DNA of 64,000 nucleotides from Thermoplasmata archaeon. GTDB lineage: Archaea; Thermoplasmatota; Thermoplasmata; Lutacidiplasmatales; UBA184. The notes under the pieces were generated by a model, which did no database searches, had not been told where the DNA came from, and was given only the letters and a program-made list of their open reading frames with translations. Below, in pieces: positions 38,226-63,010 of the stretch (position 1 is the stretch's first letter; every line of letters begins with the position of its first letter). The stretch covers positions 221,703 through 285,702 of the forward strand of contig JAKIVS010000001.1 of NCBI GenBank assembly GCA_022750435.1, written 5' to 3'. Position numbers and translations under genes: made by a program.

Positions 38226-39128
38226 TCACGTCGGTCCGGCGTCGTGCGGGTGGGACGCGAAGAGGCGGGGGGAGGCGTCCGTGCGGAGCGCTTTGCCGAC
38301 CCGGACGATCACGTAGAGCGCGAACGCGATGGTCACGATGAAGAAACTGACCGGATACGGCTCGTACCAGGAGATGAACAGCCCGAGCCACGTCGCGGAC
38401 AACGCCACAGAGACGGAGACAAGGACCGCCGTGAGCGGGCGTTTGGTGAGGCGGACGGCGATCGCGGCGGGAGTCACCATCAGGGCGAAGATCAGCAGGA
38501 CCCCGATGATCTGGACCGCGATCGAAATCGTCACGGCGAGCATCACCATGAACGCGAGGTTGAGCGCGAGCATCGGGAGGCCTTTCGCCTCGGCGACGTC
38601 CTCGTCCAGGGACGCGAACAGGAGCGGTCGGTAGATCATCGCGAGGACGGCGAGCACGATGAGGCTCGTCCAGAAGGTGAAGCTCACCCCGGAGGCGCTG
38701 ATGCCGAGGACTTCCCCGAACAGGATCGAGTACGCCTCGGTGGCGTACCCCTTGTAGAGGCTGAGGAACAGGAGACCGAGGCCGAGCGCGAAGGCGAGCA
38801 CGGTCCCGATCTCGACGTCGCGGTTGGTCGCCCGATTGCCGAGGAACGCCATCCCGCTCGCCGTGGCGATCGTGAACACGAGGAGGCCGTACACCGGCTG
38901 GACCCCGAGGAGGACCGCCCCCGCCGCTCCGGAGAATCCTGTATGGCCGAGGGCGTGAGTGGCGAATGAGGCGCGCCGGAGAACGACGAAGTAGCCGATG
39001 ATCCCCGCGAGGATTGCGATGATCGTTCCCGCCTCGAATGCGTTGCGCATGAACTCGAACGCGAGCATCGACCGGAGGTCGGTCACGATGTTCCAGTTGA
39101 ACCCCGGGCCGGCCGCCGAGCCGCTCAT
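38226..39128 (-). CDS. ABC-3 family metal (Zn/Mn) transporter permease (ZnuB/MntB-like)
   Basis: Start at ATG 39128 (MSGSAAGPGFNW...), ~8 TM helices. ATGA overlap with the ATPase gene. Confidence 0.75.
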   Translation of the reverse strand: MSGSAAGPGFNWNIVTDLRSMLAFEFMRNAFEAGTIIAILAGIIGYFVVLRRASFATHALGHTGFSGAAGAVLLGVQPVYGLLVFTIATASGMAFLGNRATNRDVEIGTVLAFALGLGLLFLSLYKGYATEAYSILFGEVLGISASGVSFTFWTSLIVLAVLAMIYRPLLFASLDEDVAEAKGLPMLALNLAFMVMLAVTISIAVQIIGVLLIFALMVTPAAIAVRLTKRPLTAVLVSVSVALSATWLGLFISWYEPYPVSFFIVTIAFALYVIVRVGKALRTDASPRLFASHPHDAGPT

Positions 39129-40009
39129 GCGCCCTCCTCCCCGTGGTCGTCTTCGCCGCCGACGATCACGATGTTGTTGCGGGAGTCGCGCAGGACCTCG
39201 ACGTGGACGCCGTAGAGGGCCGAGAGGCTCTCGGACGTGAGGACGTCGCTCGGCCGGCCGGTCGCGACCCGGCCGTTCGCGATGTAGATCACCTTGTCGA
39301 GACACTTGATCATGGGATTGATGTCGTGCGCCACGAGGAGCGTCGTGACTCCCCGTGCCTGGACGAGGCCGTGGATCGTCTCGACGAGCTCCCGGCTCCG
39401 CCGGAGGTCGAGGTTCGAGAGCGGCTCGTCGAGGAGCAGCATCTCCGGGTTGCCGACGAGCGCTTCTGCGAGGAACACCCGCTGGAGCTCGCCCCCGGAG
39501 AGGGAGCCGAGCGACTTCGAGCCGAGGTCCGAGGCGCCGACGTCGGCCAGGACCTGGGCCGCAGCGTCCCGCTCCGCCTCGAGTCGGAGCCTCGGTCCCC
39601 ACACGGTCGGCCGGAATCGGTCGCCCGGACCCCACCGCGTCCCGGGGAAACCGAGCCGCACGAGCTTGTCGCACTCGAGGTGCGTCTCGCGGTCGATCGT
39701 GTGCCGCTGCGGAACGTAGCCGATCCGGGCATTCCCTCGATGCGGGGCCGAGCCGAGGACCGAGAGCGACCCCGCCGACGGCCAGTGCAGGCCGAGCAGC
39801 ATTCGGAAGAGCGTGGTCTTCCCCGCGCCGTTCGGACCGATCACCGCGACGAACTCCCCGTGTTCCACCTCGAACGAGGCGTTCCGCCAGACGAACTTGT
39901 CCCGGTACCGGACCTCCAGGCGCTCGGCCCGGATCGCCGGAGCGCCGGACCGGGCCGTCGGCCCGACCGGCGGGTGGGTGGCGGGAGGGAGCGGTGCGCT
40001 AGCGGCCAC
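39125..40009 (-). CDS. ABC transporter ATP-binding protein (ZnuC/MntA-like)
   Basis: Walker A GPNGAGKTT, signature LSGGELQRV, Walker B LLLDEP. Confidence 0.85.
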   Translation of the reverse strand: MAASAPLPPATHPPVGPTARSGAPAIRAERLEVRYRDKFVWRNASFEVEHGEFVAVIGPNGAGKTTLFRMLLGLHWPSAGSLSVLGSAPHRGNARIGYVPQRHTIDRETHLECDKLVRLGFPGTRWGPGDRFRPTVWGPRLRLEAERDAAAQVLADVGASDLGSKSLGSLSGGELQRVFLAEALVGNPEMLLLDEPLSNLDLRRSRELVETIHGLVQARGVTTLLVAHDINPMIKCLDKVIYIANGRVATGRPSDVLTSESLSALYGVHVEVLRDSRNNIVIVGGEDDHGEEGA

Positions 40010-40015
40010 GCGAGG

Positions 40016-41221
40016 TCACTGCCCCAGCTGGTAGGCGTTCAACGCGTTCTCCAACTGGTTGTATTGCCCGTACATCCAGTCCTGGAAGCTCGTGTCCGGA
40101 GGCTGGATCGTTTCGCTCACGAAGGTGACCGAAACGTTGTGCTGCGCCGCGATCGCCTTCAAGGACGTCGTGATGGGCGTCACGGTCTGGATGTTGTAGA
40201 CCAGGACCTTCACGTTCCCGCTCTCGAGCTGGCACTGGAACTGCGTGACGCTCTGGGTCGGCGGGTCGTTCCCCTCGGCGATCGCCTCCATGAACGGCTG
40301 GGGCGAGATCAGGTCGAGCCCCGTGTAGTTCGCGAGGTAGACGAAGATGCTCTCGGTCGAATCGACGACCGTGCCCTGGAACTCGTCCCGGATCTGGTTC
40401 GCCCGCGCGTACAACTGGTCGATCGACACGCCCTGGGCGCCGCCCCCCGTCGAGGTGTTCAGGTTCGCGAAATTCTGCTGGAAGACCTTCGTCGCCGACG
40501 GCTCGAGCGCGACGAGGTCGCCGTACATCGCGAGCAGGGTGTGGTTGACGTACAGCGGGTTGTACCACTGGTGGGGGTTCCCCGTGACGATTCCCCCCGT
40601 CACCGAGACGCCGTTGAGGATGCCGACGTTGAGGACCTCCTGGTGGGGGGTCTTCGAGGCGTTGATCAGCTGGAGCGCCCAGTCGTCGTAGCCGACGCCG
40701 TTGACGACGATGAAATTCGCGTCGGCGATCGCGGCGGCGTCGGAGGTGTTCGCTTCGTACTCGTGCGGGTCGGCGTTCGGGTCGTTGACGATGCTGAGGA
40801 CCGACGTCAGATTCCCCCCGAGCTGGCCGACGAGGCTGCCCCAGAAGTTCTCGCCGGCAACGACCTGGATCACCTGGCCGAACGGCAAGGTCGGAAGAGA
40901 GCCCTGCACGCTGGTGGCGTTGGCGAAGTGCGGGGTCGTGTCGCCGGAGACGACGCCGGCCTTCGGATTCGCCCCGAGCTCGTCGGGTGTGAACGCCGCA
41001 CACGGGTTCCCCGGCGCCTGGCTCGTCACGATCTCGTACGCTACGGCGCTCCCCGCCACGATGAGCACGACCACAACGGCGAGGATCGTCGACTTCGGTA
41101 CGCCCGTACGAAGGGGCTTGGCGGGACAGGACCCGTACGGCCCGGACGAGGCCGGCGCGGAAGAGCCCCCGGAGTTCGCGGGGTCCGGACCCCCAACCGG
41201 AGAGGCATTCGAGCCGGCCAC
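40016..41221 (-). CDS. Metal ABC transporter substrate-binding protein (cluster A-I, ZnuA/TroA-like)
   Basis: N-terminal TM/anchor, DPHEYE and NPHQWYNP motifs, N-glycosylation sequons. GTG start at 41221, just after the repressor stop (the track ORF extends into the repressor gene). Confidence 0.7.
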   Translation of the reverse strand: MAGSNASPVGGPDPANSGGSSAPASSGPYGSCPAKPLRTGVPKSTILAVVVVLIVAGSAVAYEIVTSQAPGNPCAAFTPDELGANPKAGVVSGDTTPHFANATSVQGSLPTLPFGQVIQVVAGENFWGSLVGQLGGNLTSVLSIVNDPNADPHEYEANTSDAAAIADANFIVVNGVGYDDWALQLINASKTPHQEVLNVGILNGVSVTGGIVTGNPHQWYNPLYVNHTLLAMYGDLVALEPSATKVFQQNFANLNTSTGGGAQGVSIDQLYARANQIRDEFQGTVVDSTESIFVYLANYTGLDLISPQPFMEAIAEGNDPPTQSVTQFQCQLESGNVKVLVYNIQTVTPITTSLKAIAAQHNVSVTFVSETIQPPDTSFQDWMYGQYNQLENALNAYQLGQ

Positions 41222-41223
41222 GG

Positions 41224-41661
41224 TCAGAGTGCTCCCTCGAACGGTCGGCCCGAGCACGGGGTGATCGGTTCCCCGTGGGGGCAGACCGAGGGATGGCCCT
41301 CGGCCGCACACACGCGCTCCACCGTCTTGTGGGAGATCGACAGGTCGACCTCTCGGGCGGCGGCGCACGTCGCCTCGGGAGAGAGCCCGAGCTTCCCGAA
41401 GAGTGTCTCGGCGACGCGGTGGTGCCGCTGGTACTCGAGCAGAGTTCCTCGGCCTTTGGGGGTGAGACGGCTCTTGCCCCGGTATCGTTCGACGAGCCCG
41501 AGCTCCTCGAGTGGGGTGAGGTGGCCGAGCGCGGAAGGGGCCGAGACATGCAGGGACGTCGCGATCCAGTTCAGCGGAACCCCGCGCTCGGGGGTCTCCC
41601 GCACGCCGACGGCCTGCAAGGCGTCCAATTGGCGTCGGGTCAGTTTCTGGAGAGTCTCCAT
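41224..41661 (-). CDS. DtxR/MntR-family metal-dependent transcriptional repressor
   Basis: Winged-HTH N-terminus plus metal-binding dimerisation domain. 145 aa. Directly upstream of znuABC. Confidence 0.75.
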   Translation of the reverse strand: METLQKLTRRQLDALQAVGVRETPERGVPLNWIATSLHVSAPSALGHLTPLEELGLVERYRGKSRLTPKGRGTLLEYQRHHRVAETLFGKLGLSPEATCAAAREVDLSISHKTVERVCAAEGHPSVCPHGEPITPCSGRPFEGAL

Positions 41662-41684
41662 CGGTCCCTACGTAGGATCGAATC

Positions 41685-41710
41685 TTAATAAGTCACACCC
41701 TAATTATTAA
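41685..41710. promoter_or_regulatory. AT-rich perfect inverted repeat TTAATAA-N12-TTATTAA, putative MntR operator overlapping the TATA region
   Basis: Seen directly in sequence ~24 bp upstream of the repressor start. The only AT-rich block in the region. Confidence 0.5.
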
Positions 41711-41890
41711 TCAACCAAGAACTTTCGCCGTGCGCGGGGGCGAACGACGTACCGCGCGTCCCTCGCCGGCGACCGAATCGTACCGCCCTCCTTCGGCGGT
41801 CGGAACACGACGGTCGACGGGGAGCCCGGCGGGTGGGCGACTCCCTCCGAATCGTCGCGTCGTGGGTCGTGCCGCGGCCGGGCGTTCACC

Positions 41891-44800
41891 CTAGAACGGC
41901 TGGCGCCGGAACGGCCAGAACGCCGCGGGCGTCTCCGGGGGCTTCGTCTGGCCCTGGAGGAGCTTGAGGGACTCGCGCGCCTTGTCGAGCGCCTTCTGGT
42001 AGTCCTCGACGCGGGCGCGGATCGACTCCTCGAGAAGCTTTCGGGCATCGGCGGTGTCGAGGTGGCGCTCCGCCGCCTTTGCGAGAGCCGAATCGATCAG
42101 GTAGTGGATGTTCAGGAGCTCCCGGTGGAGCGCCTTGCGGGTGTTCAGCTCCGACTCGACCGCCAGGAGGGTTCGTGCGCCTTCCACAAGGTCGCCCGAC
42201 TGGACGAGGCCTTCCACCGAGGCGAGTCGCTCCGGGAGCGTGCCGAGCGTGACGTTGAGGCCCTCCCGCGCGAAGACGAGTTCGCTCTCCACGCTGCGGC
42301 GGCGTTCGCCGAGGCGTGCCTCGACGAGTCCGGCCAGGCGCTCGTTCCCCTGCTGGACGTTCGCCTCGACGCTCGCGTACTTCCCCGCGTCGAGGGCGCT
42401 CTTCGCCTCGCTGAACAGCTCCATCACGGGGGTCGTGTCAAGACCGAGCTTCTCGCCGACCCAGAGGCGGTCTTTCAGAAGATGGACCGCGGCCTCGAGG
42501 ACCGCCACGCGGCTCAGTCGCGCCCGGGCCTCCTCCTCACTCATGCGTTGAACGGCGAGCGGGTAGTCGCGTCGCCCCCGCGCCTCCTGGATGCCGAGAG
42601 CCGCTTGGGCCCGGGCCTCGGTTTCCGGTGCGTCGGCGGCGGCCGCCGCGCCGTAGATGGCTTCCAGGTCCGTTCGCCGGGCGTCCAGCAGCCGGTCGAG
42701 CGATTCGTACGCGGCGGTCCGCGCCCGTTCGAGGGCGTCGGACGCGCGCTTCCATTCCCTCGCCGGGATCGCGCCCTCCGCCTCGGCGACCGCTTCCTCG
42801 ACGGCCTGGATGCGGCCGGTGCCGGCCGCGGTCATCGTCTCGGCGAGCGATCGGATCGAGGCAAACGAACCCGCGTAGAGCCGCTCGACCGCCCAGCGGG
42901 CGAGGTCGTTCGCCTCGCGCGCGGCCTGCGTCGCGTTCGGATATTCCCCGGCCTGGGCGTGGTGTCGGGCCTTCTCGAGCGCTCGGACGACTTCGTCGAC
43001 GTCGGCGCCCAGCTCGAGGGCTTCCTTCACCTGCCGGTCGGCCGAGTCGAGGGCATCGCGGGCCCGGCGCTGCTGCTCGCGGGTGGTCGCGAGCTGGTCG
43101 GCGGCCTCGAGCGCGAGCTCGAAGACGGCCGGGAACTGCTGACGGCGGATCGCCTGGCGCGCCTTCTCGATCTGTGCGGTCGCCGAGGCGGCGTGGACGC
43201 CGTCTTTCTCCGCCTCGACGAGCTTCGCCTCCATCGTCTCGAGCGCCGCGCGGGCGAGCGTCGTCTGGAGTTCCACGCGCTCGATCTCCCCCTCGCTCTG
43301 GGCGGCGAGGGTCAACGCTTCGATGGCGCGGCCTTCCTCGAGCGCCTGGCGAGCGCGCGACAGGAGGTTCTCGGCGACGGTCGTCGGCGACCCCTCCTGG
43401 CGGACATGGACCAGCATCCCCTGGAGGTTCGCGAGCGTCTTCGCCACGTGGGTGTGCGTCGACTGGATCAGCTCCCGCTCGAGCGGGCCCCCAAGCTCGA
43501 TCGCCTTCGCGTAGCGCTTCTGCGCCAGGTGATCCTCGAGTTCCGCGAGGCGGCCCTTCAACGGACCGATCGCGGCCCGCACGATCTCGGCCTCGGCGAA
43601 CGCCTCCCGGGCGCGCTTGACGGCCCGCTCGGCCTGTTCGAGGAATCCCCGTGTTTCCACCAGCTGGGAGCGGACGGACTCGACGCGCTCGGCGACCCCG
43701 GTCGGCACCGGCGTGGCGAGCCCGCGTCGCGCCTCGGCGAGCTGCTCGACGACGGTCCCCGTGTCGACGCCGGCGGACCGGGCCACATCGAGCTCCTGCT
43801 CGAGGGCGCGGACCGTCTCCTCGAGGACGGGGCGCAGAAGTTGGAGGAGCGCGTCCTGCGCGGTGGTCGCCAGTTGGAGGGCTTCGGTCGGTCGTCCCTC
43901 GGAGAGGGCGGCCGACGCCGCGGCGAGGTTCGGCCGGTACGGGTCGGTGGAGAGGCCAAGGCGGTGACTGTCCTCGAGGAGGAGCTCGACCGTGGTGATC
44001 CGGCGTCGGGCGTCGGTGCCGGCCCGCTCCGCCGTGAGCGCCTCCTCGATGGCCCGGAGCTTCGCCTTCGCACCGGCAAAGTCGAGGGCCTGGTACGCGA
44101 GGCGCGTTTCCCGGATGCGCTCCCGGTAGGCGTCGACGGCGACGCCGTCGTCCTTGAGGCCCTGCCAGAGCTCGCCCGCCCGCTGCAATCCCTCGACGAG
44201 CGCCTCCGCCGATTGGCGCATGCCGAGCGCCTCTTCCTCGACCGCCTTCGCGCCCTGGTACGCCTCGGCGAACCGGTGGTCGCGGGCGGCTTCCTGGGCG
44301 GCGTCGAACCGCTCGCGGAGGGCCGCGGTGTCGAGGCCCATCTTCCCGAGCTCCACGAGAGCGAGCTTCGCGTGGGAGACCGCCTCCTCGCTCTGGATGA
44401 GCTGTTGCTGCTGGGCGCGCGTCCGGATCTCCTGCGAGGCCCGGGACGCCTTGACGAAATCGCCCATGTTGAAGATCTGCTGGACCTCGTCGATCTGACG
44501 CTGGATCTCGTCGCCGGCCCCGCCCATCGCCTCGAGGGCGCGACCTTCCTCCTCCAGCGCCTCCACCAGGGAGGAGGCGTGGGCGGCGAACACCGCGGCG
44601 AACTCCCGCTCCGCTCGCTTGAGGCTCTCCAAGGACGCCACCAGGTCCTCCTTGACCCGGAGCGAGACGTCGGCATCGGCGAGCAGACGTCGCGCCGGGG
44701 CCACGAGGGCGTCGTCGTGGATCTCCTCGAATCCCTTCTCGAGTTCCCCCACGACGCGGGCGACGTACGGACCGGCCGACGCCCGCAGGCCGACCTCGAC

Positions 44801-46357
44801 GGCCGCGAGCGCCTCGCCGGCCTCGGCGAGAGACCCGTCGGCGAGGGTCTGCTGTCCGTTCGCGAGGGCGGCCGCCGTTTCCGGCGTGAGGAAGCCGCGC
44901 TCGCGCGCCAGCTCGACGAGCTTCTCGAGACGTTCGGCGTAGGTTTGGAAATGTTCGAGCGCGGCGCGTCCGAGGGTCCGGATCGCCTCCCGGATCGTCG
45001 TCCGGGCGGCGTCGACCTCGAACTTCTCGAGCCGCTGCTGCGCCTCCCGGAGCGGTTCGTAGTACGACTGGACCGGCACGTCGAGCGCGCTCAACCGGTC
45101 GAGGAGCGAGCGGAGCGAGTCGACCTCCTCCCGGGCGGCGTCGAGGTCCTGGGTGAGCGCCGTGGCGCGCTCCATCGCCTCCTGGCTGGCGGCGAGCGCC
45201 TCCCCGTAGATCTTCAGCCGGAGCGCCTCGCGGGCCCGGTTCATCGCCGCGAACACGTCGGAGGCGTCGCGACCGAGCCAGCGGGCCTCGACCAGCTTCG
45301 GTCGAACCTCGTCAAGCAGCCCGGCGACGATCCCCACGACGGGCTCCTCGGTGATCGCCCGCCCCTTCGCGAGGAGCTGGGGGAGTTCCACGGGACTAGC
45401 GCCCGGCACCTGGTCGACCAAGACGTCGATCTGCGCGACGCCCTCCGTCACGTCGGTGCCGGACCCGCGCAGCGATTCGAGGGTCCCTTTCAGCGTGGCG
45501 AGCGCCCCTTGCACCCGACCGCGGAGTTCCTCGCCGACGTCGGCGCTCGCCCGCTCGATCGCCGGGACCGTCTCGTCCCACTCGAGCGGGGTCGCGCTCT
45601 GATCGACGGCGAGGGCCGTGTCGAGCGTGGCGTGCTGCGAGCCGAGGTCCCGGGCGGCGGCGAGAATCGATTGTCCGGAAGCGCGCACGAGCTCGCGCCG
45701 CTCCACGGCGGCGGGGACCTGGCCCCGGATCTCCGCGTCGAGCTGCGCGAGCGCCTCCGCCACCTTTCCGTCCGACATCGGGGCGATCGCGTGGCGGAAC
45801 CTCGCATCGAGCTCGGCCATCCGCTCCTCGGGGATGCCGGCCCATTTGGCCACCGAACGCGCGCGCTCGCGCAGGGTGAGGGAGAAATCCGTCTGCGATT
45901 GGCGGACGATCCGGAAGAGCGTCGCGATTCGCTCGACGGCCAGGGCGAGCTCGCCTTCGATCGCCGTGGCGCGCAGCTCCTCGATGACCTTGGCGGCGTC
46001 CGCGGGGAGCGGCGCCTTCGCCTTCTGGAGCGCCTCGGCGCGGCCGAGCACCGACGTCCGGCGCTCCTCGAGCGCTGGCGCCACGGAGCGCTGGATGTAG
46101 GATACGAACTCTTTCGCGGTCTGCTCGACCGCCTCCCAATCGGACTTCCGGGTGAGCTCGCGGAGCTTCGCGACCCGCTCGGCGGTCTCGGAGAGGGTGA
46201 CGCCGATCTCCTCGAGAAGTTTCAGTCGGTCTTCGACCTCGGCCGACGCCTGGTCGGCGAGCTGGCGCCGCTTCTTGAGCGACTCCGCCTTCTCCTGGAG
46301 GATCTTGGTCAGGCGGGACGATGGGACGCTCCCCATCCCCCCACCCGAACCGGACAT
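41891..46357 (-). CDS. Giant (1488 aa) acidic alpha-helical repeat / coiled-coil protein of unknown function
   Basis: Ala/Glu/Leu/Arg-rich with a recurring ~35-40-aa module [LV]xxxG[LAV]DTxxxxxxLxxAxxAxxxGxYxxA. Full-length antisense ORF 42062..46363 is a shadow. Confidence 0.65.
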   Translation of the reverse strand: MSGSGGGMGSVPSSRLTKILQEKAESLKKRRQLADQASAEVEDRLKLLEEIGVTLSETAERVAKLRELTRKSDWEAVEQTAKEFVSYIQRSVAPALEERRTSVLGRAEALQKAKAPLPADAAKVIEELRATAIEGELALAVERIATLFRIVRQSQTDFSLTLRERARSVAKWAGIPEERMAELDARFRHAIAPMSDGKVAEALAQLDAEIRGQVPAAVERRELVRASGQSILAAARDLGSQHATLDTALAVDQSATPLEWDETVPAIERASADVGEELRGRVQGALATLKGTLESLRGSGTDVTEGVAQIDVLVDQVPGASPVELPQLLAKGRAITEEPVVGIVAGLLDEVRPKLVEARWLGRDASDVFAAMNRAREALRLKIYGEALAASQEAMERATALTQDLDAAREEVDSLRSLLDRLSALDVPVQSYYEPLREAQQRLEKFEVDAARTTIREAIRTLGRAALEHFQTYAERLEKLVELARERGFLTPETAAALANGQQTLADGSLAEAGEALAAVEVGLRASAGPYVARVVGELEKGFEEIHDDALVAPARRLLADADVSLRVKEDLVASLESLKRAEREFAAVFAAHASSLVEALEEEGRALEAMGGAGDEIQRQIDEVQQIFNMGDFVKASRASQEIRTRAQQQQLIQSEEAVSHAKLALVELGKMGLDTAALRERFDAAQEAARDHRFAEAYQGAKAVEEEALGMRQSAEALVEGLQRAGELWQGLKDDGVAVDAYRERIRETRLAYQALDFAGAKAKLRAIEEALTAERAGTDARRRITTVELLLEDSHRLGLSTDPYRPNLAAASAALSEGRPTEALQLATTAQDALLQLLRPVLEETVRALEQELDVARSAGVDTGTVVEQLAEARRGLATPVPTGVAERVESVRSQLVETRGFLEQAERAVKRAREAFAEAEIVRAAIGPLKGRLAELEDHLAQKRYAKAIELGGPLERELIQSTHTHVAKTLANLQGMLVHVRQEGSPTTVAENLLSRARQALEEGRAIEALTLAAQSEGEIERVELQTTLARAALETMEAKLVEAEKDGVHAASATAQIEKARQAIRRQQFPAVFELALEAADQLATTREQQRRARDALDSADRQVKEALELGADVDEVVRALEKARHHAQAGEYPNATQAAREANDLARWAVERLYAGSFASIRSLAETMTAAGTGRIQAVEEAVAEAEGAIPAREWKRASDALERARTAAYESLDRLLDARRTDLEAIYGAAAAADAPETEARAQAALGIQEARGRRDYPLAVQRMSEEEARARLSRVAVLEAAVHLLKDRLWVGEKLGLDTTPVMELFSEAKSALDAGKYASVEANVQQGNERLAGLVEARLGERRRSVESELVFAREGLNVTLGTLPERLASVEGLVQSGDLVEGARTLLAVESELNTRKALHRELLNIHYLIDSALAKAAERHLDTADARKLLEESIRARVEDYQKALDKARESLKLLQGQTKPPETPAAFWPFRRQPF

Positions 46358-46481
46358 GGCTAGCGCCTACGGAGCGGCCCGGCCGGAGCCGCCGAGGCGG
46401 GGGCGACGGGCGCCCTAAAAAGATGCGGGCTCCTCGATATAAAGCGTGGTCCTCGGGCGCGCGTCGGCCCCGACGTCCGGC

Positions 46482-46868
46482 TCACGCCTTCGTGATGCGC
46501 CGCATCCCCATGGCATCGAGATACTGGATCTCGGTCCCCGGGGTCAGCTGGCCCTTCAATTCGGTCTCGATGGGGAGGCTGAACGTCTGGTAATCCTCGA
46601 GGTCCATCAACTGGACCTCGGTCTCGGTGAGGGACAGCACCTGGGCCTTCCGCTTCCCGATCATCGGGACGCGGACCTTGTGGGTTACCGGGAAGACGAC
46701 GCTCCGTTTGGAGCCGTCGAACAGCCCGATCGCATCGATGCGTGCCTTCGCTTCCCCGTGCTTCCCGGGCTTGGACATCTGGATCGAGAGGATCCGGCAC
46801 GGCTCCTCTTCGACGAGCATGTAGCGGCCCTCCTTGAGCTCGCGGACCTCTTGCTGCGTCCACGCCAT
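46482..46868 (-). CDS. Translation initiation factor 5A (aIF-5A)
   Basis: Hypusination loop SKPGKHGEAK. 128 aa from ATG 46868 (MAWTQQEV). Confidence 0.9.
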   Translation of the reverse strand: MAWTQQEVRELKEGRYMLVEEEPCRILSIQMSKPGKHGEAKARIDAIGLFDGSKRSVVFPVTHKVRVPMIGKRKAQVLSLTETEVQLMDLEDYQTFSLPIETELKGQLTPGTEIQYLDAMGMRRITKA

Positions 46869-47019
46869 CGCGCGTCCCCTCCGAAGCTCTCGCAAGAAGT
46901 CCGGGGGATAACCGTTGCCCCCGGGCCGGCCGTCGACCGGGGCCGTCCGGCGAGCGAGGGTTTATCGGCGCCGGTCCCCCATCGCAATCCCGCGGGCCGC
47001 GGCGCGGTCCGACGCGTTC

Positions 47020-50000
47020 ATGGAGCGGCTTGCGCCACGGTACGACCCGACCGAGGTGGAGGCGGCCAGCCGCGCGTTCTGGGCGGAACGTTCCCGGCGG
47101 CGCGACGCCGAGGGCGCGGCGGGCCGGGGCGGCCGACCGGTCCGGCAGTTCCTCGGCACCCTCGCCCCCTCCGATTCTCCGGCCACGACGCTCCAGCGGA
47201 CCGTCGCCGCCGATGCCGAAGCGCGCTACCTGCGACTCGCCGGCCGACGGACGGATTGGTCGCTGAGGCTCCGGGTCCCATGGTCCGGCGAGGGACGGGA
47301 CGCCACGGTCGCGCGGCTCTTCCAGGCCGGCGTGAGCGGGCCTTCCACCGACCCGGACGGACTCGCCGAGCGGCGACGGTGGATGCTCGGACGCCTCGCG
47401 GACTCCCGCGTCTTGGTAGCGCGGGAACTCCCGCTCCGGATCTGCCCGAGCTGTCGGACCCCCCGCACCCCGGAAACGATCGTCTACGACGCGCAGCCCG
47501 GGCACGCCTACCTCGTCCGCTTTGCCATCCCGGACGAGGCCGAACGCACGTCGCTCCTCGTCTGGACGGACGAGGTCTGGAAGCTCCTCGGCACCGTGGC
47601 GCTCTTGGTCAACCCCGAAACCCCGTACGTCGTCGCGCGATTCACGCGCCGCGACACCGCGGAACGGGTGATCCTCTCCCGGTCGGCGCTCGACCGCGTG
47701 CAGCGCTGGCTCCCGGGGAGCTCCCTCGAGGTCCTCGAGGAGAAGCTCGGGGCGGACCTCGCGGGGACGACGTACTCCCACCCGCTCACGCTCGAGTACC
47801 CTCCCCTCTCCGACCTCGTCTCGCCCGCGGGCTCCGTCGTCGCCTCGAACGACGTGAGCGACAGCGGCACCGGGATCGTGACGCTCACCCCCTCGCACGG
47901 CGCCGGCGATGCGGCGGTCGCCCGGGCCCACCGGATCGAGGGTCCGTCGGTGGTTGGGACCGACGGCCTCGTGGAGTCCTCCCGGCCGCACAAGTACGCG
48001 GGGCTCGAGTTGGAGAGCGCGGAGGCGTTCATCCTCCGCGACCTGACCGAGGGAGGTTCGATGTTCGCCGAGCTGACCGTGCGGCGCGGCGTACCGTACT
48101 GTGCGGTGTGTGGCTCGGTCCTTCGCTGGGTTCCCGGGCGCGCCTGGTGCCTCGAACCGGGCCGGCTGAGCGCGGAGTCCCTCGGCCAGTTCGCGCGCCT
48201 CCTTCCCGACGACACCGTCCCCCTCACCTCCGAGGTCGTCCCGTGGTCGGTCTCCGAGACGACCCCGAGCGTCGACCCGTCCGACCCGATCCTCTCCGAG
48301 TGCTCCCAATGCGAGCGGCTTTCGACGGCCGCCACCGGGGAGCGGTGCGCCTGTGGCGGAGCGTTCGTCGGCGTGCGACGGCGCCTTCTGCCCGCGTTCT
48401 CCGAGGCCGTCGATGGGTGGGCCTCGGCCCGCGCCCTCGATCCCTCGGACCCGGTACGGCTCTACCTCCCGTACCGTCGGAGGGCCGCGGCGTTGCTCCA
48501 CCACCTCGCCGCCGGCGAGGCGCTCGACGCGCCGCCCGCTGACGTGCGATTGATCGCCCTCCCGACCTTGCCGCCCGGGACCTTCGGCGACGGTCCCGGT
48601 CAGGACGCCCAGAGGGCCGCGCTCCTCCGAACGAGCCGCCCCCCGCGCACGCTGGCCGTCGTCCAGGAACGCGCGGTGCAGGAAGCGCGGCGGCTGAGCA
48701 AGTTCTGGATGTTGGCCGCCCAGGTGCTCGACCGTTCGATCGCCGACGGATTTGAACCGGACCGGGCGCTCGCCGGTCACCTGTCGGAGCTGGCGGAGGA
48801 GGACCGGGCGTTCCTCTCCACCTTCGAGCGGATGCGGACCGACGTCCGTCGACGCTACGAGGCCGGCGACCTCGCCGCCGCCCAGGCGATGCTCGCCCGA
48901 TTCGCGGAGGTCGAACTCCGCGGGGGGTACCTCCCGATGGTCGCGAGCCGCCTCGCCGCGCCCGGGCTTCCGCCGGGGAAGGTCGCCGCCCTCCGGGTCC
49001 TCCACCACGTTCTCCCCGCCTGGGTCGAGCTGTACGCTCCCATCGCGCCGTTCACGATGGAGGCGCTCCACCGGGCGTTCCAGCCCGATGGAGGCTCCGT
49101 CTTCGACGGCGGGATCCTGCCGGCCGTCGACCGGGCCGTGTCGGTCGAAGCGGAGGGGGAGTACGACCGGTGGCGGACCTTCGGCGAAGCCCTGCGGGTC
49201 GGACGCCGGAGATTCGGAATCCCGGCCGCGACCGAGCTGCCCCGCGCGATCCTCCTCGTGAACGATGAGGCGACGGCGACCCGATTGCGTTCGACCGCCG
49301 CGGTCCTGGGGCGGCTCGCCCACGTGACGGAGGTCATCGTCGGCTCCCCGTCCCAACCGTGGGATGGTCAGAGGATCGAGGTCCATCCCGTCCTCGCGGC
49401 CATCCAGAAGACCTACGGGGCCCAATCGGCCCGGGTCGTCCGGATCCTGGAACAGATTCCGTCCCGTCGCGTGCAGGACGGCGTGCGGGCCGGCACGCTC
49501 TCGATCGCCCTCGACGGACGCCAGATGCCAATCCTGCCTGGCATGGTCGAGTTCTCCGAATCGCTGCCGGACGACGTGGTCCCGGTACCCTGGGGGCACG
49601 GCGAGATCCTGATCTCGCTCCCCCCGGACACGGCCCGCCACAAGCGGAAGGCGCCGGCCCTGACGCTGGACGGCTACCGGATCGTTCGCCACATCGAACG
49701 CCGCTTGCACATCGCCGGGGGGGTGACACCCGAGCTCGTCGTCGTGTCGGCCAACGGTCCGCTCGGCGAAGAGATGGCGAAGCACGCCGTCGCCGTCGCC
49801 GCCTACATCGGGATTGGGCAGCTCGCCGTCAACGACGGGACCCTCTCCCCCCCGATGACGGAGACGAGTCTCGGGCGCACGCGTCGCGGAGGTCGGTGGC
49901 GGGTCTACATCCCCGGCGTTCCGGTTCGGCCCCCCACGGCCCGGCCGAGCCGACCGGCCCTCGGACGCCACCGGGTTCCCGTGTTCGCTGAGAGCCGGCC

Positions 50001-51036
50001 CACGTTGGAAACCGTTCCCTTCCTCGAGGGGTCGGTCCGGAACCGCGAGGAGACGGTGCGCTCGATCGTCGAGCAGGTCGACCGAGTCGTCGGACGACCC
50101 GTGGTCGGACCGACCAAGGTCGGAAACGCGTTCGACGCCGGGTTCACCTCGTTCGACTTGCTGTCCAAAGCTCCGTACGACCAGCTCTCGGGCGTGGCGG
50201 GGTTCGGCCCGTTCGTCGCCGGTCTCCTCGTCGAGTCGTTCGGAGGCGAGGTACCGGCGCCACCGCCTCGCCACCGGCCCCACCTCGTGCGTCCGGGCGA
50301 ACACGAACCAGCACCTCCCGAAACGCTGGAGGCGCCGGCCATGGTCGAGCCCCAGCCGGCGCCCCCGGTCCCGGCCGCCGCCCCACCGCCCCTCGCGCCG
50401 CTCGCGGCCCCGATCCTTGCCCCGCCGCCGGCGGCAACCTTACCCACCATGCAAGTCGTTCCCGTGGCGCCGGTCCCGACCCCCGCCGTGCCGGTGCCGC
50501 CACCCCTCGCCCCACCCCCGGTCGTAGCTCCTCCGCCGGCTCCGGAGCCCCCAACTCCGGAACCCCCCGCCGCACCGCCTTCCGGAGTACGACTGAGCCT
50601 CGGGGACCGGGAGGAGCCGGCGTGGAGGAGCTTCCTCGACGCGACGAGCGCCGGACACCGGGGGCTGTGCCTCAGCCGGGAGTTCCCAGAACGTCGGCGC
50701 GCCCTCCTCGGTCCCCGGGACGTCGAGGTCGTCTGGCTCTCGAACGTCGGCAAGGGCTCTGCGGTCCGACCGGGCGACCTGCCGGCGCTGACGACCCTCC
50801 TGACCTCCGCGATGACCGACCGGGGCGTGACCGCCATCTTCGTCGAGGGGGGAGAGTACCTCGTTCGGATCCACGGCGTCGGCCCGCTCGCCGATCTGCT
50901 CCGGCAGCTCGACGCGCTCGCCCGCGAACGCTCCGCCCGGGTCTGGTGGCCGATCAACCCCGCGCTGATGCCCGGCGCGGACGTCGACGTCCTTCGGACG
51001 ACGGTGACCGTCGAGGGCCCCGAATCCCCGACGTGA
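47020..51036 (+). CDS. Catalytically degenerate isoleucyl/valyl-tRNA synthetase paralog fused via a Pro-rich linker to a C-terminal DUF835 domain
   Basis: Class I aaRS N-terminus (PRYDPTEVEAASRAFW). CP1 boundaries ICPSCRTPRTPETIVYDA and PYCAVCGSVLRWVPGRAWCLEPG. Editing-domain motifs LLVWTDEVWKLLG and GTGIVTLTPSHGAGD. IleRS-like DAQRAALLR, KFWML and LPAWVELYAPIAPFTMEAL. HIGH and KMSKS are absent. ~110-aa P/A/V-rich linker. C-terminal GLCLSREFP...VVWLS...AIFVEGGEYLV matches DUF835. Confidence 0.7.
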   Translation: MERLAPRYDPTEVEAASRAFWAERSRRRDAEGAAGRGGRPVRQFLGTLAPSDSPATTLQRTVAADAEARYLRLAGRRTDWSLRLRVPWSGEGRDATVARLFQAGVSGPSTDPDGLAERRRWMLGRLADSRVLVARELPLRICPSCRTPRTPETIVYDAQPGHAYLVRFAIPDEAERTSLLVWTDEVWKLLGTVALLVNPETPYVVARFTRRDTAERVILSRSALDRVQRWLPGSSLEVLEEKLGADLAGTTYSHPLTLEYPPLSDLVSPAGSVVASNDVSDSGTGIVTLTPSHGAGDAAVARAHRIEGPSVVGTDGLVESSRPHKYAGLELESAEAFILRDLTEGGSMFAELTVRRGVPYCAVCGSVLRWVPGRAWCLEPGRLSAESLGQFARLLPDDTVPLTSEVVPWSVSETTPSVDPSDPILSECSQCERLSTAATGERCACGGAFVGVRRRLLPAFSEAVDGWASARALDPSDPVRLYLPYRRRAAALLHHLAAGEALDAPPADVRLIALPTLPPGTFGDGPGQDAQRAALLRTSRPPRTLAVVQERAVQEARRLSKFWMLAAQVLDRSIADGFEPDRALAGHLSELAEEDRAFLSTFERMRTDVRRRYEAGDLAAAQAMLARFAEVELRGGYLPMVASRLAAPGLPPGKVAALRVLHHVLPAWVELYAPIAPFTMEALHRAFQPDGGSVFDGGILPAVDRAVSVEAEGEYDRWRTFGEALRVGRRRFGIPAATELPRAILLVNDEATATRLRSTAAVLGRLAHVTEVIVGSPSQPWDGQRIEVHPVLAAIQKTYGAQSARVVRILEQIPSRRVQDGVRAGTLSIALDGRQMPILPGMVEFSESLPDDVVPVPWGHGEILISLPPDTARHKRKAPALTLDGYRIVRHIERRLHIAGGVTPELVVVSANGPLGEEMAKHAVAVAAYIGIGQLAVNDGTLSPPMTETSLGRTRRGGRWRVYIPGVPVRPPTARPSRPALGRHRVPVFAESRPTLETVPFLEGSVRNREETVRSIVEQVDRVVGRPVVGPTKVGNAFDAGFTSFDLLSKAPYDQLSGVAGFGPFVAGLLVESFGGEVPAPPPRHRPHLVRPGEHEPAPPETLEAPAMVEPQPAPPVPAAAPPPLAPLAAPILAPPPAATLPTMQVVPVAPVPTPAVPVPPPLAPPPVVAPPPAPEPPTPEPPAAPPSGVRLSLGDREEPAWRSFLDATSAGHRGLCLSREFPERRRALLGPRDVEVVWLSNVGKGSAVRPGDLPALTTLLTSAMTDRGVTAIFVEGGEYLVRIHGVGPLADLLRQLDALARERSARVWWPINPALMPGADVDVLRTTVTVEGPESPT

Positions 51037-55537: not shown

Positions 55538-55667
55538 CCGCGGAGACCGTGGCACGCCGGCCGGGTTCCGTACCAAGACCAAGGCGGTTGCGGTCGGAGG
55601 AATGGGTTCGGAGGCTTGGGTGACCCCGGGACGTCGCTCGCGGGGACCCGCGGAGCGGACCACCCGC

Positions 55668-56057
55668 TCAGGGCTTGGGGTACTGGTAGAGCCCGACGAC
55701 ATTCCCCTCGCTGTCTTTGAAATAGCCCATCCAGCCCATGCTGGCGTCTCCGATCGGCTGCTTGCGGACCAGGATCGTCCCGCCGTGCTTCTCGATCGAC
55801 TTCTCGGCGACCGTGATCTCATCGACCATGATCGTCACGACCGGATGCTCGAGTGGAGCTGCCCTCTTCGTAATTCCGCCCCCGATATACCCGGGCTCCT
55901 TCGGCATGCCCTCCTCGGTCACGGCCCCGGTCGAGACCATCGCGTACTCCATCCCGGGGGGTTCGACGTACTTCCAACCAAACGTCGATCCGTAGAACTT
56001 CTTCGCGCGCGTCACGTCGTCCGCCGGGATCTCAAAGTGTCCGACCTCTCCGCTCAT
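55668..56057 (-). CDS. VOC-family (glyoxalase/bleomycin-resistance fold) protein
   Basis: 129 aa, MSGEVGHFEIPADDVTRAKKFYGSTFGW...GNVVGLYQ. Only the C-terminal part of the 913-aa track ORF is real. Confidence 0.7.
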   Translation of the reverse strand: MSGEVGHFEIPADDVTRAKKFYGSTFGWKYVEPPGMEYAMVSTGAVTEEGMPKEPGYIGGGITKRAAPLEHPVVTIMVDEITVAEKSIEKHGGTILVRKQPIGDASMGWMGYFKDSEGNVVGLYQYPKP

Positions 56058-56316
56058 TTTGGCCCCCCTTCTCCCGAGCGTTCCCACGCTAAAAAACCGA
56101 ACCGGAGGTCGTGGAACGGTTCCGAATCCTCCGCCTCGGGAACGCCCCACCCCTCCTCCCGCCGCGCGGTTCGGAAGACGAACGGTACGCGACGGCACCG
56201 CCGGGAATCGCCGCCACGAACGGGGAGGGCGCGAAGGGCCGATGTCCTGGACGGGAGCGAGGGGGCCCCGTTCCGTCCGACGGGGGCCCGTCGGGGCGAG
56301 ACACATCGGGAGGCGG

Positions 56317-56357
56317 CTAAATACCGGGACTCGGGTCCCGCCGCCCCGGGTAAACAA
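56317..56357 (+). promoter_or_regulatory. Promoter of gly-rich paralog 1: TATA-like TAAATA plus conserved ATACCGGGACTCGG and CCGGG-N17-CCCGG palindrome
   Basis: Near-identical element repeated at 59540..59582 upstream of paralog 2. Both genes begin ATGTCG. Confidence 0.55.
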
Positions 56358-59264: not shown

Positions 59265-59539
59265 GGTTCCCTTTCGTCCCTCTCGAGGGAACTGCCTCTC
59301 CACGGGCCGGGGATCGACGGCCGGGACCTCTTCCACGATTCCCCGGGGCCCCGGCCCGCTCGAACGCTCAGGAAGGAGGCGGGGCCCCGAGTCGCGGCCT
59401 TCGAGAACAGGAGGGCTCCCGGCCTTCCGGGGCCGCGGAACCAGCCTGTCCCGCCGGGACCCGGAATGTCACGACGCGCCACGTCCACGGCTAGGGCCGT
59501 GGCCCCGGTGGCCGAAAGTTGCGACAATCCTAATTCCGA

Positions 59540-59582
59540 CTATATACCGGGACTCGGTTCCCCGCCTTCCCGGGGATCAAGT
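59540..59582 (+). promoter_or_regulatory. Promoter of gly-rich paralog 2: TATATA plus ATACCGGGACTCGG plus palindrome
   Basis: See paralog 1. ~26 bp from motif end to ATG. Confidence 0.55.
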
Positions 59583-62507: not shown

Positions 62508-63010
62508 GCCCACCGCGAGGGCGGGGCTCCTTCGGAGCCTCGTCCCCGCGGCAACCCCGCCGTTCCGGGTGGGACTCCGCCGGTGCGGCGACCGGGACCG
62601 ATTCGGCGGGTCGATGGGTGCCGACGCGCTCGGGGTTCGCCGCCCGGCGGCCGGGGGCGTGAGGATATCTCCGCGCCGGACTCCCGTCGGGCGAGGATTC
62701 GCAGGAATCATGACCGGGTCACTCCGAACACGGCGCTCGCCGGCTGCCAAGAAACGCAACGCCCGCACGCGCCAACGGCGGATCGCCGCCCGCCGCCGCC
62801 AGGTCCCCCTCGGGGGGAACCGGGGCGGTCATCAAACGAAGGCGTAACGCCTCGAGGACTCCGGGTCGTGGGGCTCCCCGGACGCGCAACTCCAGACCAC
62901 GACCGCCGAACGGTGGGGGCCTCTCGGCCCGCCGAACTCCGGACGGGGCCCGCTCCGAGCCGCGGCACGCACGACCCACCGATCGTCTAGCCGGCGGAAG
63001 TGGGGGTTCG

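Follow-up and report, generated by a model that had tools for sequence, protein, structure and literature searches.

Analysis of a 64,000-nucleotide (nt) window of Thermoplasmata archaeon DNA (contig JAKIVS010000001.1, positions 221,703 to 285,702; coordinates below are those of the window) revealed a minus-strand gene whose product, a protein of 1488 amino acids (aa), belongs to a new helical-repeat family. The repeating unit is an extended, 63-aa relative of the tetratricopeptide repeat (TPR) hairpin that is present in 23 copies, is absent from Pfam and has no detectable solved structural relative; the protein itself lies outside the TPR, spectrin, HEAT/ARM and SMC families. That the gene is real is established, as are the anatomy of its repeats, its helicity, distribution and pattern of conservation, and the absence of catalytic domains. 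As to its role, our preferred reading, which we hold tentatively, is that of an elongated, non-enzymatic scaffold in the cytoplasm, with a fixed length, which would position partners via conserved patches and a lineage-specific terminal adaptor.

The original prediction had taken the minus-strand open reading frame (ORF) of 1488 codons as the coding one, and codon composition and homologues both agree. The G+C contents at its first, second and third codon positions (GC1/2/3) are 0.78/0.47/0.91, and the third-position value (GC3 0.906) is similar to those of the aIF5A gene, the ZnuA gene and an aminoacyl-tRNA synthetase-like gene of the window (0.88-0.90). Among 5.8 billion proteins searched, homologues of the minus-strand product form at least 220 clusters; the 120 clusters listed are mostly full-length (1,275-1,533 aa, 44-93 % identity), and those with names are proteins of Thermoplasmata metagenome-assembled genomes (MAGs) labelled 'hypothetical protein', the best named match being from AcS13-54 (88 % identical). 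A genome scan found relatives encoded in 174 GTDB species representatives, including Candidatus Lutacidiplasma silvani and the AcS and SubAcS soil MAGs. The latter belong to the Lutacidiplasmatales, an uncultured order from acidic soils with genomes of ~2.1 Mb and ~69 % GC (PMC9287336). With its 88 % identical match in AcS13-54, the window evidently stems from a member of this order too. The sense frame is open across the gene in 59 of 59 homologous loci. It is the GC3 value, the full-length homologue clusters, the spread over species representatives and a conserved, putative TATA-like promoter, described below, that identify the ORF as a real gene. Each isolate name occurs only once among the 80 loci listed, which suggests one copy per genome.

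The family extends well beyond these close homologues. An exhaustive search of the representatives yielded colinear relatives of ~1,400-1,620 aa at 18-34 % identity, the named ones again from Thermoplasmatota, and colinear full-length relatives reach down to 15-26 % identity across that phylum. Direct homologues among its unannotated proteins include, for example, L3K01_03785, ACREDK_07715, M1481_00810, ACP5RS_03200 and N3F63_05655. The window protein shares with this family of 'hypothetical proteins' (15-93 % identity) the same N-terminal helix, the signature SE.ELE[RK]VELQ and the repeat anatomy. Indeed, it carries every mark of membership: colinear full-length homology at ~1,400-1,620 aa, the L.K.L[QE]EKA helix (LTKILQEKAE at aa 16-25) and the signature near residue 1,020 (SEGEIERVELQ at aa 1021-1031). 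Among the matches of profile searches with the distant members there is no cultured organism and there are few named proteins, and a description of the family was not found in the literature on the Thermoplasmatota cytoskeleton, the prokaryotic RING finger, the Lutacidiplasmatales or archaeal spectrin-like rods. Five longer relatives of 2,400-3,100 aa (P0163, P0173, P0219, P0207 and P0306) contain 7-11 matched stretches, some together with CARDB and DUF5915 domains, and may be duplicated or fused repeat arrays.

The protein had been described from its sequence as acidic, helical and very large, and this holds. Its isoelectric point is 5.18 and its net charge -49 (249 Asp and Glu versus 200 Lys and Arg); Ala, Leu, Glu and Arg account for 52 % of the residues, and there is no Cys. 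No signal peptide, transmembrane segment or lipobox was found in the protein, the maximum of the 19-residue Kyte-Doolittle average being 1.1. As it possesses neither a hydrophobic segment nor a cysteine, the protein is predicted to be cytoplasmic. AlphaFold2 models were computed for two overlapping halves, each with a 46-sequence alignment. In both halves the mean predicted local distance difference test score (pLDDT) is 89.4, and ~85 % of the residues are helical, with short (13-15 aa) and long (~40 aa) helices in strict alternation. Despite the high pLDDT, the predicted template modelling score is just 0.44-0.46 in both half-models, a combination that is typical of elongated, multi-unit proteins and points to such a shape here.

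The repeat was resolved by profile methods, self-BLASTP detecting no repeats. In a profile self-alignment (hhalign), the strongest off-diagonal self-match (P = 7.5e-22) covers residues 39-1405 and is displaced by 62 aa, and the remaining shifts lie near multiples of 62-63 aa. Anchoring on the short helices of the AlphaFold2 models gave 23 units, which recur on average every 62.6 aa, and a hidden Markov model (HMM) of the repeat produced 23 tandem matches in the protein (20 of them at i-E < 0.01) against none in the product of the antisense ORF or in 20 shuffled sequences. The check by repeat detection that had accompanied the original prediction has returned repeats well in excess of chance, by self-alignment and, with 23 tandem copies, by the repeat HMM.

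The 63-residue consensus reads RRLGVDVPEVRERLAEARAALRAGDYAEALELLAEAEEELEARAARERLERALEELRRLLEEA. In the profile built from 242 repeat copies, Gly occupies position 4 (67 %), Val or Leu position 5 and Asp position 6, followed by a hydrophobic residue at 14 (91 %), Ala at 17 (61 %), Gly at 24 (35 %), an aromatic residue at 26 and Ala at 29 (52 %). The motif noted earlier, G[LV]DT..L..A..A...G.Y..A, is borne out by this profile as the first ~30 positions of the consensus; the module of ~35-40 aa that had been deduced from it is not, since the motif covers only the conserved half of a unit with a period of 62.6 aa. A regular expression for that motif matched four sites only and was superseded by the extraction anchored on the models.

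In each unit, a G-[VL]-D loop leads into a short helix (13-15 aa), and a G-x-[YF] turn into a long one of ~40 aa. Hydrophobic residues fall at positions 3, 5, 10, 14, 21, 26, 33, 36, 40, 49, 53, 56 and 60, with Ala at 17, 29 and 63, so that a hydrophobic seam with a spacing of 3-4 residues runs along the entire long helix and is weaker at positions 42-46 only. Because the seam spans the full length of the helix and weakens at this one place, the long helix appears to cross from bundle to bundle. The most apt description of the unit is that of a TPR-like hairpin in which the second helix runs on for ~25 further residues to bridge the way to the following unit.

Comparison with known families revealed no close counterpart. 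As had been claimed from the sequence, there is no recognisable enzymatic or NTPase motif: Pfam, NCBIfam, PDB sequence searches (with the single sequence and with a profile) and PADLOC gave no significant match, to such a domain or to any other. None of the defence families of PADLOC-DB matches the protein, and the gene is apparently single-copy, syntenic and housekeeping-like. The best Pfam match is Spectrin (PF00435), at E = 0.11 and 13.4 bits versus a cut-off of 29.9, and is confined to one stretch. Foldseek searches of PDB with both half-models found nothing significant (best E 0.42-0.45); the weak fold neighbours are rod-like arrays of bundles, namely EbhA (2dgj, template-modelling score TMt 0.36), the alpha-actinin rod, EzrA, alpha-catenin and PRC1.

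Homology to a TPR or HEAT family had been named in advance as an outcome that would speak against the original prediction. For HEAT/ARM there is neither a Pfam match nor a significant fold match, and the period is 62.6 versus ~40-47 residues. For TPR the outcome is marginal. No TPR family matches the window protein at E <= 1. Searched against Pfam, the repeat consensus gives YfdX as its best match, followed by TPR_4, TPR_2 and TPR_16 (E = 0.002-0.04, with E = 0.02-0.03 for the TPR models), all under the curated cut-offs; TPR_4 and TPR_2 score 15.9 and 14.8 bits versus cut-offs of 27. Matches of the consensus to EzrA and to an SbsC spectrin-like repeat (E = 0.12-0.16) are under the cut-offs as well. 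Two or three of 14 distant members do pass the TPR_2 or ANAPC3 thresholds, though only by summing stretches that are individually non-significant; in the best such stretch, TPR_2 positions 1-32 align with the short helix and the start of the long one. A TPR-like pattern (L14, A17, L21, G24, Y/F26, A29, L33) is present in the repeat, with weak statistical support.

The likeness to TPR proteins (TPR_1, TPR_2 and ANAPC3 of clan CL0020) hence concerns the conserved half of the unit, which in distant members can be aligned with the 34-residue TPR_2 model over its positions 1-32, and both are described as non-enzymatic scaffolds for protein interactions. The period is, however, 62.6 rather than 34 aa, the helices measure 13-15 and ~40 residues rather than ~12-15 each, helix B bridges to the next unit, and TPR structures give no significant match in fold. 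Like the window protein, spectrin, alpha-actinin, EzrA, PRC1 and Staphylococcus Ebh are acidic and non-enzymatic; they form long arrays of small bundles linked by a continuous helix, as is predicted for the window protein, and have a cytoskeletal or spacer role, which for the window protein is proposed. In contrast to its 63-aa unit with one short middle helix, the spectrin repeat has ~106 aa and three equal helices, while Ebh has a 126-aa unit and is a bacterial surface protein rather than, as predicted here, a cytoplasmic archaeal one; moreover, no score against these rods is significant, and no actin-, FtsZ- or membrane-binding terminal domain is recognisable in the window protein. Finally, the protein resembles SMC and Rad50 in its size (>1,200 aa), its high helicity and, in some lineages, its proximity to smc-scpAB. 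It lacks the Walker A/B heads, the hinge and the long uninterrupted antiparallel coiled coil of these proteins, with helices broken every ~63 aa by the short-helix hairpins, and SMC_N, AAA and hinge families give no match in Pfam or NCBIfam.

Conservation along the array, judged from the alignments, is uneven, unlike the expectation for a mere spacer (Table 1). Within the clade of the window protein, aa 333-400, 525-674, 985-1035, 1300-1320 and 1405-1465 are near-invariant, charged residues included, as are the N-terminal helix (SSRLT.ILQEKAE) and the C-terminal tail (FWPFRRP). In that helix, L20, E22, K23, A24, L27 and R31 hardly vary across the family, and distant members keep a related pattern, [QKG]LxK[QE][LMI][EQ][EKQ]KA. 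Block 1 contains many invariant residues, some of them charged, in alignments of 46-103 homologues, and is partly kept in distant members. The signature in repeat 16 is conserved furthest: even members that are 15-20 % identical share E1022, E1024, E1026, L1030 and Q1031 with little or no variation. Its position is residue ~1006-1035 in most full-length carriers and 925-998 in a few clades. As this position is held at 15-20 % identity, the number and order of the repeats are under constraint.

Table 1. Coordinates of the helical-repeat gene, its parts and the associated elements within the window.
Feature	Position	Strand	Basis and remarks
Coding sequence of helical-repeat protein, 1488 aa	41891..46357	minus	stop codon 41891-41893; ORF, GC3, homologues
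N-terminal long helix, aa 16-50, motif SSRLTKILQEKAE	46208..46312	minus	AlphaFold2 helix H16-50; family-wide conservation
Array of 23 tandem ~63-aa repeats, aa 51-1469	41951..46207	minus	self-match, AlphaFold2, repeat HMM, hydrophobic seam
Conserved block 1, aa 333-400, repeats 5-6, EEPVVGIVAGLLDEVRPKLVEARWLGRDASDVFAAMNRAREALRLKIYGEALAASQEA	45158..45361	minus	candidate docking surface
Conserved block 2, aa 525-674, repeats 8-10, LADADVSLRVKEDL + MGGAGDEIQRQIDEVQQIFNMGDFVKASRASQEIRTRAQQQQL...SHAKLALVEL	44336..44785	minus	dense invariant columns
Signature SEGEIERVELQ, aa 1021-1031, repeat 16	43265..43297	minus	most conserved stretch of the whole family
C-terminal linker and aromatic-basic tail FWPFRRQPF, aa 1470-1488	41894..41950	minus	linker pLDDT < 60; tail conserved in the clade
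TATA-like element TTTATATC	46436..46443	minus	86 nt upstream of the ATG; putative promoter
aIF5A gene, co-directional upstream neighbour	46482..46868	minus	Pfam IF5A-like_N; 73/84 clade loci
Antisense shadow ORF, 1433 codons	42062..46363	plus	not a gene; mirrored GC, no matches

The C-terminal ends differ between lineages. In twelve of 14 distant members the C-terminus is formed by a C4HC3 zinc finger that matches Prok-RING_1 (PF14446; best E = 3.6e-10, most scores falling slightly under the gathering cut-off) and is often preceded by a CARDB-like domain, and another large clade terminates in a CARDB-like beta-domain without a finger. The window clade has extra helical repeats and the FWPFRRP tail in place of the beta-domain and the RING-type finger; a Prok-RING_1-type C4HC3 finger is not present in the window protein, which has no Cys and ends in FWPFRRQPF.

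From these features we infer an elongated rod. In each unit, the TPR-like short helix would be joined by a ~40-residue helix whose two halves pack into successive small bundles, the N-terminal half with the preceding short and long helices and the C-terminal half with the following ones. The 23 units would in this way form a single helical array of fixed length, its bundles chained by continuous helices; if straight, it would measure ~60-70 nm at ~3 nm per unit, as estimated from the helix lengths. That length and order are fixed is suggested by the colinear relatives of 1,400-1,620 aa down to 15-26 % identity, with the signature usually at ~1006-1035. The array would display at least five patches, the near-invariant stretches listed above, which are conserved between species and not between repeats. 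These may be docking sites that hold partners at defined positions along a rigid rod, as in a spacer or platform of cytoskeletal type, a kind of role that the original prediction had also considered possible, while the terminal adaptor would be the FWPFRRP tail in the window clade and the beta-domain with C4HC3 finger in most other Thermoplasmatota. In that case, archaea would gain a new candidate element for the cytoskeleton or for nucleoid organisation, and the unit, a TPR-like hairpin prolonged by a bridging helix, would represent a helical repeat of a new class. The protein is among the largest of these ~2-Mb genomes, yet it has no Pfam family, annotation or solved structural relative. The family occurs in at least 174 Thermoplasmatota species genomes and in many metagenomes, its lineages being diverse and mostly unassigned to named orders, and a repeat number and order that are near-constant down to 15-20 % identity mark it as a structure for which physical length is important.

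Several points weigh against this scaffold. The conserved patches may make contacts within the molecule instead of serving as docking sites, and the neighbourhoods of the gene are heterogeneous: by tblastn, condensin genes adjoin 3 of ~50 loci outside the window clade, in two arrangements, and none of the 86 loci within it, and several of the frequent neighbours are related to translation or metabolism (aIF5A, Cgi121, QueH with aIF2alpha, DUF35-thiolase-HMGCS). The gene has apparently remained single-copy and housekeeping-like while drifting among information-processing neighbourhoods.

Candidate partners would be the chromosome or cell-division machinery, from the smc-scpA-scpB, ftsZ and topA neighbours of some lineages. 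Taken further, the protein could be an accessory of chromosome organisation, a rod acting with SMC-ScpAB and possibly with FtsZ or topoisomerase I, for example in tethering the nucleoid or spacing it relative to the division site. In two loci (L087, L088), smc, scpA, scpB and the gene follow one another co-directionally with gaps of 94-185 nt, and in a third (L086, relative 26 % identical) the gene lies behind aIF5A and its 3' end overlaps the end of a convergent scpB-scpA-smc set; with these relatives at ~17-25 % identity to each other, adjacency to ScpB has persisted over a large divergence. FtsZ is encoded directly upstream, at 55 nt, in L115, and TopA divergently in L090. One distant clade (L085 5761-6960, L097 2380-3735, L098 5955-7310) adds a co-directional gene ~40 nt upstream (43 nt) for a coiled-coil protein of 399-451 aa with two or three C-terminal zinc ribbons and weak SMC/Rad50-like coiled-coil matches; it is absent from the window, and its product is a candidate partner. 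Adjacency to condensin genes and to FtsZ provides the most specific functional hints, but does so in a minority of loci, with no SMC or ScpAB gene in the 64-kb window or within +/-6-8 kb in the 86 window-clade loci or the Cgi121-type loci. Moreover, a DNA-binding domain is lacking, the strong negative charge (-49) is a further difficulty, and synteny of housekeeping genes can outlast without a functional link. On balance, we regard this role as unlikely. Less likely again is the boldest form of the idea, that of a phylum-wide cytoskeletal rod of ~60-70 nm, spectrin- or Ebh-like and of 'extended-TPR' build, which would serve as a ruler or strut coupling the nucleoid (SMC-ScpAB) to division (FtsZ). 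The Thermoplasmatota include wall-less cells, for which a cytoskeleton has long been suspected.

The translation-related neighbours permit another reading, namely a TPR-like platform or chaperone that would act on complexes of the ribosome, of tRNA modification or of translation factors. In its favour are the TPR-like repeat motif, the co-directional aIF5A gene upstream in two clades and, in the window clade, the conserved divergent gene for an IleRS-like paralogue. Systematic tblastn of all loci found Cgi121, a component of KEOPS and likewise a co-directional upstream neighbour, in 10 loci and DUF35 in 12 (in L136 and L138, Cgi121 precedes the gene and a convergent DUF35-thiolase-HMGCS set follows it). 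QueH and aIF2alpha lie downstream in L091, a locus related to L090, in the soda-lake clade, EF-1alpha and S10 are near the gene in L086, and metabolic genes adjoin it in further loci. Archaeal translation genes are, however, numerous and clustered, which makes adjacency weak evidence; the neighbours differ between clades, the gene probably has a conserved promoter of its own and does not need co-transcription with aIF5A, and no RNA-binding or ribosome-associated domain is present. Such an adaptor seems quite improbable. The C4HC3 finger of the distant members could instead assign the protein to a RING-type, E3-like or ubiquitin/SAMP-like conjugation system as its substrate-recruiting arm: the array would present clients to the finger, and the window clade would be a derived form from which the finger was lost; TPR-type arrays are common substrate adaptors. 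With two large groups, the window clade among them, devoid of the finger, most finger scores slightly under the gathering cut-off, and no ubiquitin-like, E1, E2 or JAB gene in any neighbourhood examined, we consider this very improbable. The envelope-scaffold role entertained in the original prediction, here an extracellular or S-layer-associated one, fares worse still. CARDB-like domains, a frequent feature of surface proteins, do occur in some relatives of 2,000-3,100 aa and in some distant members, but the window protein lacks a signal peptide, a lipobox and any transmembrane segment, its most hydrophobic stretch averaging only 1.1. The N-termini of the family are a conserved charged helix, and the C-terminal zinc finger of most members argues for the cytoplasm; an envelope location is thus hardly credible.

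The original prediction had also pointed out that both strands are open for more than 1400 codons, 1488 on the minus and 1433 on the plus strand, and had called this an annotation trap; so it is. The antisense ORF is a by-product of the very high G+C content, ~71 % throughout the window, and not a gene. Its GC1/2/3 values of 0.90/0.47/0.78 (GC1 0.904, GC3 0.780) mirror the GC1 and GC3 of the sense frame (0.778/0.906), Leu, Arg and Gly make up 46 % of its product, as is typical of shadow frames, and it matches neither a Pfam family nor the repeat HMM. A stop in the mirrored frame corresponds to a sense codon TTA, CTA or TCA. These three codons do not occur in the minus-strand gene, and their frequency in ten other genes of the window is 0.04 %, so that 0.55 stops are expected in 1433 antisense codons and the probability of finding none is P(0) = 0.58. 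Given such rarity, the openness of the antisense frame is no more than chance, and its full length, flagged originally as a feature of the locus, calls for no other explanation.

That the plus-strand ORF is nevertheless expressed, alone or in addition, is effectively refuted: its uninterrupted length is all that speaks for it, and all database homologues correspond to the minus-strand product. Across the 59 homologous loci, in which the sense frame is always intact, the antisense frame is interrupted in most, its longest open stretch ranging from 238 to 1480 codons with a median of 754; the longest stretches belong to the GC-richest of the loci listed. Long shadow ORFs in genomes of more than 70 % GC can be judged by this rule, that is, by counting the sense codons TTA, CTA and TCA and by comparing the antisense open length across homologues. 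Further shadow ORFs of 1314 codons (46360..50304, minus) and 1063 codons (59577..62768, minus) face real or putative plus-strand genes of the window, very long antisense ORFs being general in this ~71 % GC genome.

The gene is situated downstream of aIF5A, as had been stated; in 73 of 84 clade loci, aIF5A is its immediate upstream neighbour and has the same orientation, the rest being apparently truncated at that end. The mechanically called aIF5A ORF begins with TTG at 46895; because its homologues begin MAWTQ..., the real start is probably the ATG at 46868, giving a protein of 128 aa. Within the 124-nt spacer between aIF5A and the gene sits the TATA-like element, followed ~19 nt later by GCAT, and a run of five T residues. 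At a similar distance, TTTAWA is found in 11 of 17 parsed clade loci and AT-rich variants in the others, with GCAT following in all 17. The gene probably has its own promoter, and co-transcription with aIF5A as a necessary reading was rejected in view of this conserved element between the two genes. The putative 5' leader (46358..46435, minus) is GC-rich, contains partly self-complementary runs gcccccgcctcggcggctccggccgggc, is conserved in the closest relatives (L005-L007 and L051) and is possibly structured.

Downstream lies a metal-uptake locus, which consists of a DtxR-type repressor (41224..41661), ZnuA (40016..41368), an ABC ATPase (39125..40009) and an ABC-3 permease (38226..39674). Its position next to the gene had been noted correctly, but is incidental: the locus adjoins only 1 of 84 homologous loci, and a functional link was rejected for that reason. 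A sharp AT-rich island TTGATTAATAATTAGGGTGTGACTTATTAAGATTCGATC at 41665..41725 (minus), directly upstream of the DtxR-type repressor gene, is likely to be the promoter of that gene and may double as an operator through which a metal repressor would control the DtxR-ZnuA-ABC locus.

On the other side, divergent from aIF5A in 72 of 84 clade loci, the plus-strand ORF 46915..51036 encodes a 1373-aa degenerate IleRS/ValRS paralogue. Only two regions of a synthetase are kept, one CP1/editing-like (aa 154-401) and one anticodon-binding (aa 562-816), and NCBIfam ileS scores 109 bits versus a cut-off of 621; a Pro-rich linker and a C-terminal DUF835 domain come after them. The paralogue is probably not a functional synthetase. 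Further along, two plus-strand ORFs of 1220 aa (55602..59264) and 1013 aa (59466..62507) have no Pfam match and an unusually high second-position GC of 0.71-0.74 in a stretch of 74-78 % GC. The first was rejected as an SMC candidate, having no family match and atypical codon-position GC; on the strand opposite to it, ORF 55668..58409 matches a glyoxalase domain at its C-terminal end only. Mobile elements occur within otherwise syntenic regions of the homologous loci: TnpB/Cas12f1-like (OrfB_IS605) genes lie a few kb from the gene in L003/L004 (14979-15962) and L136 (13816-14994), and an rve integrase is located at the end of L003.

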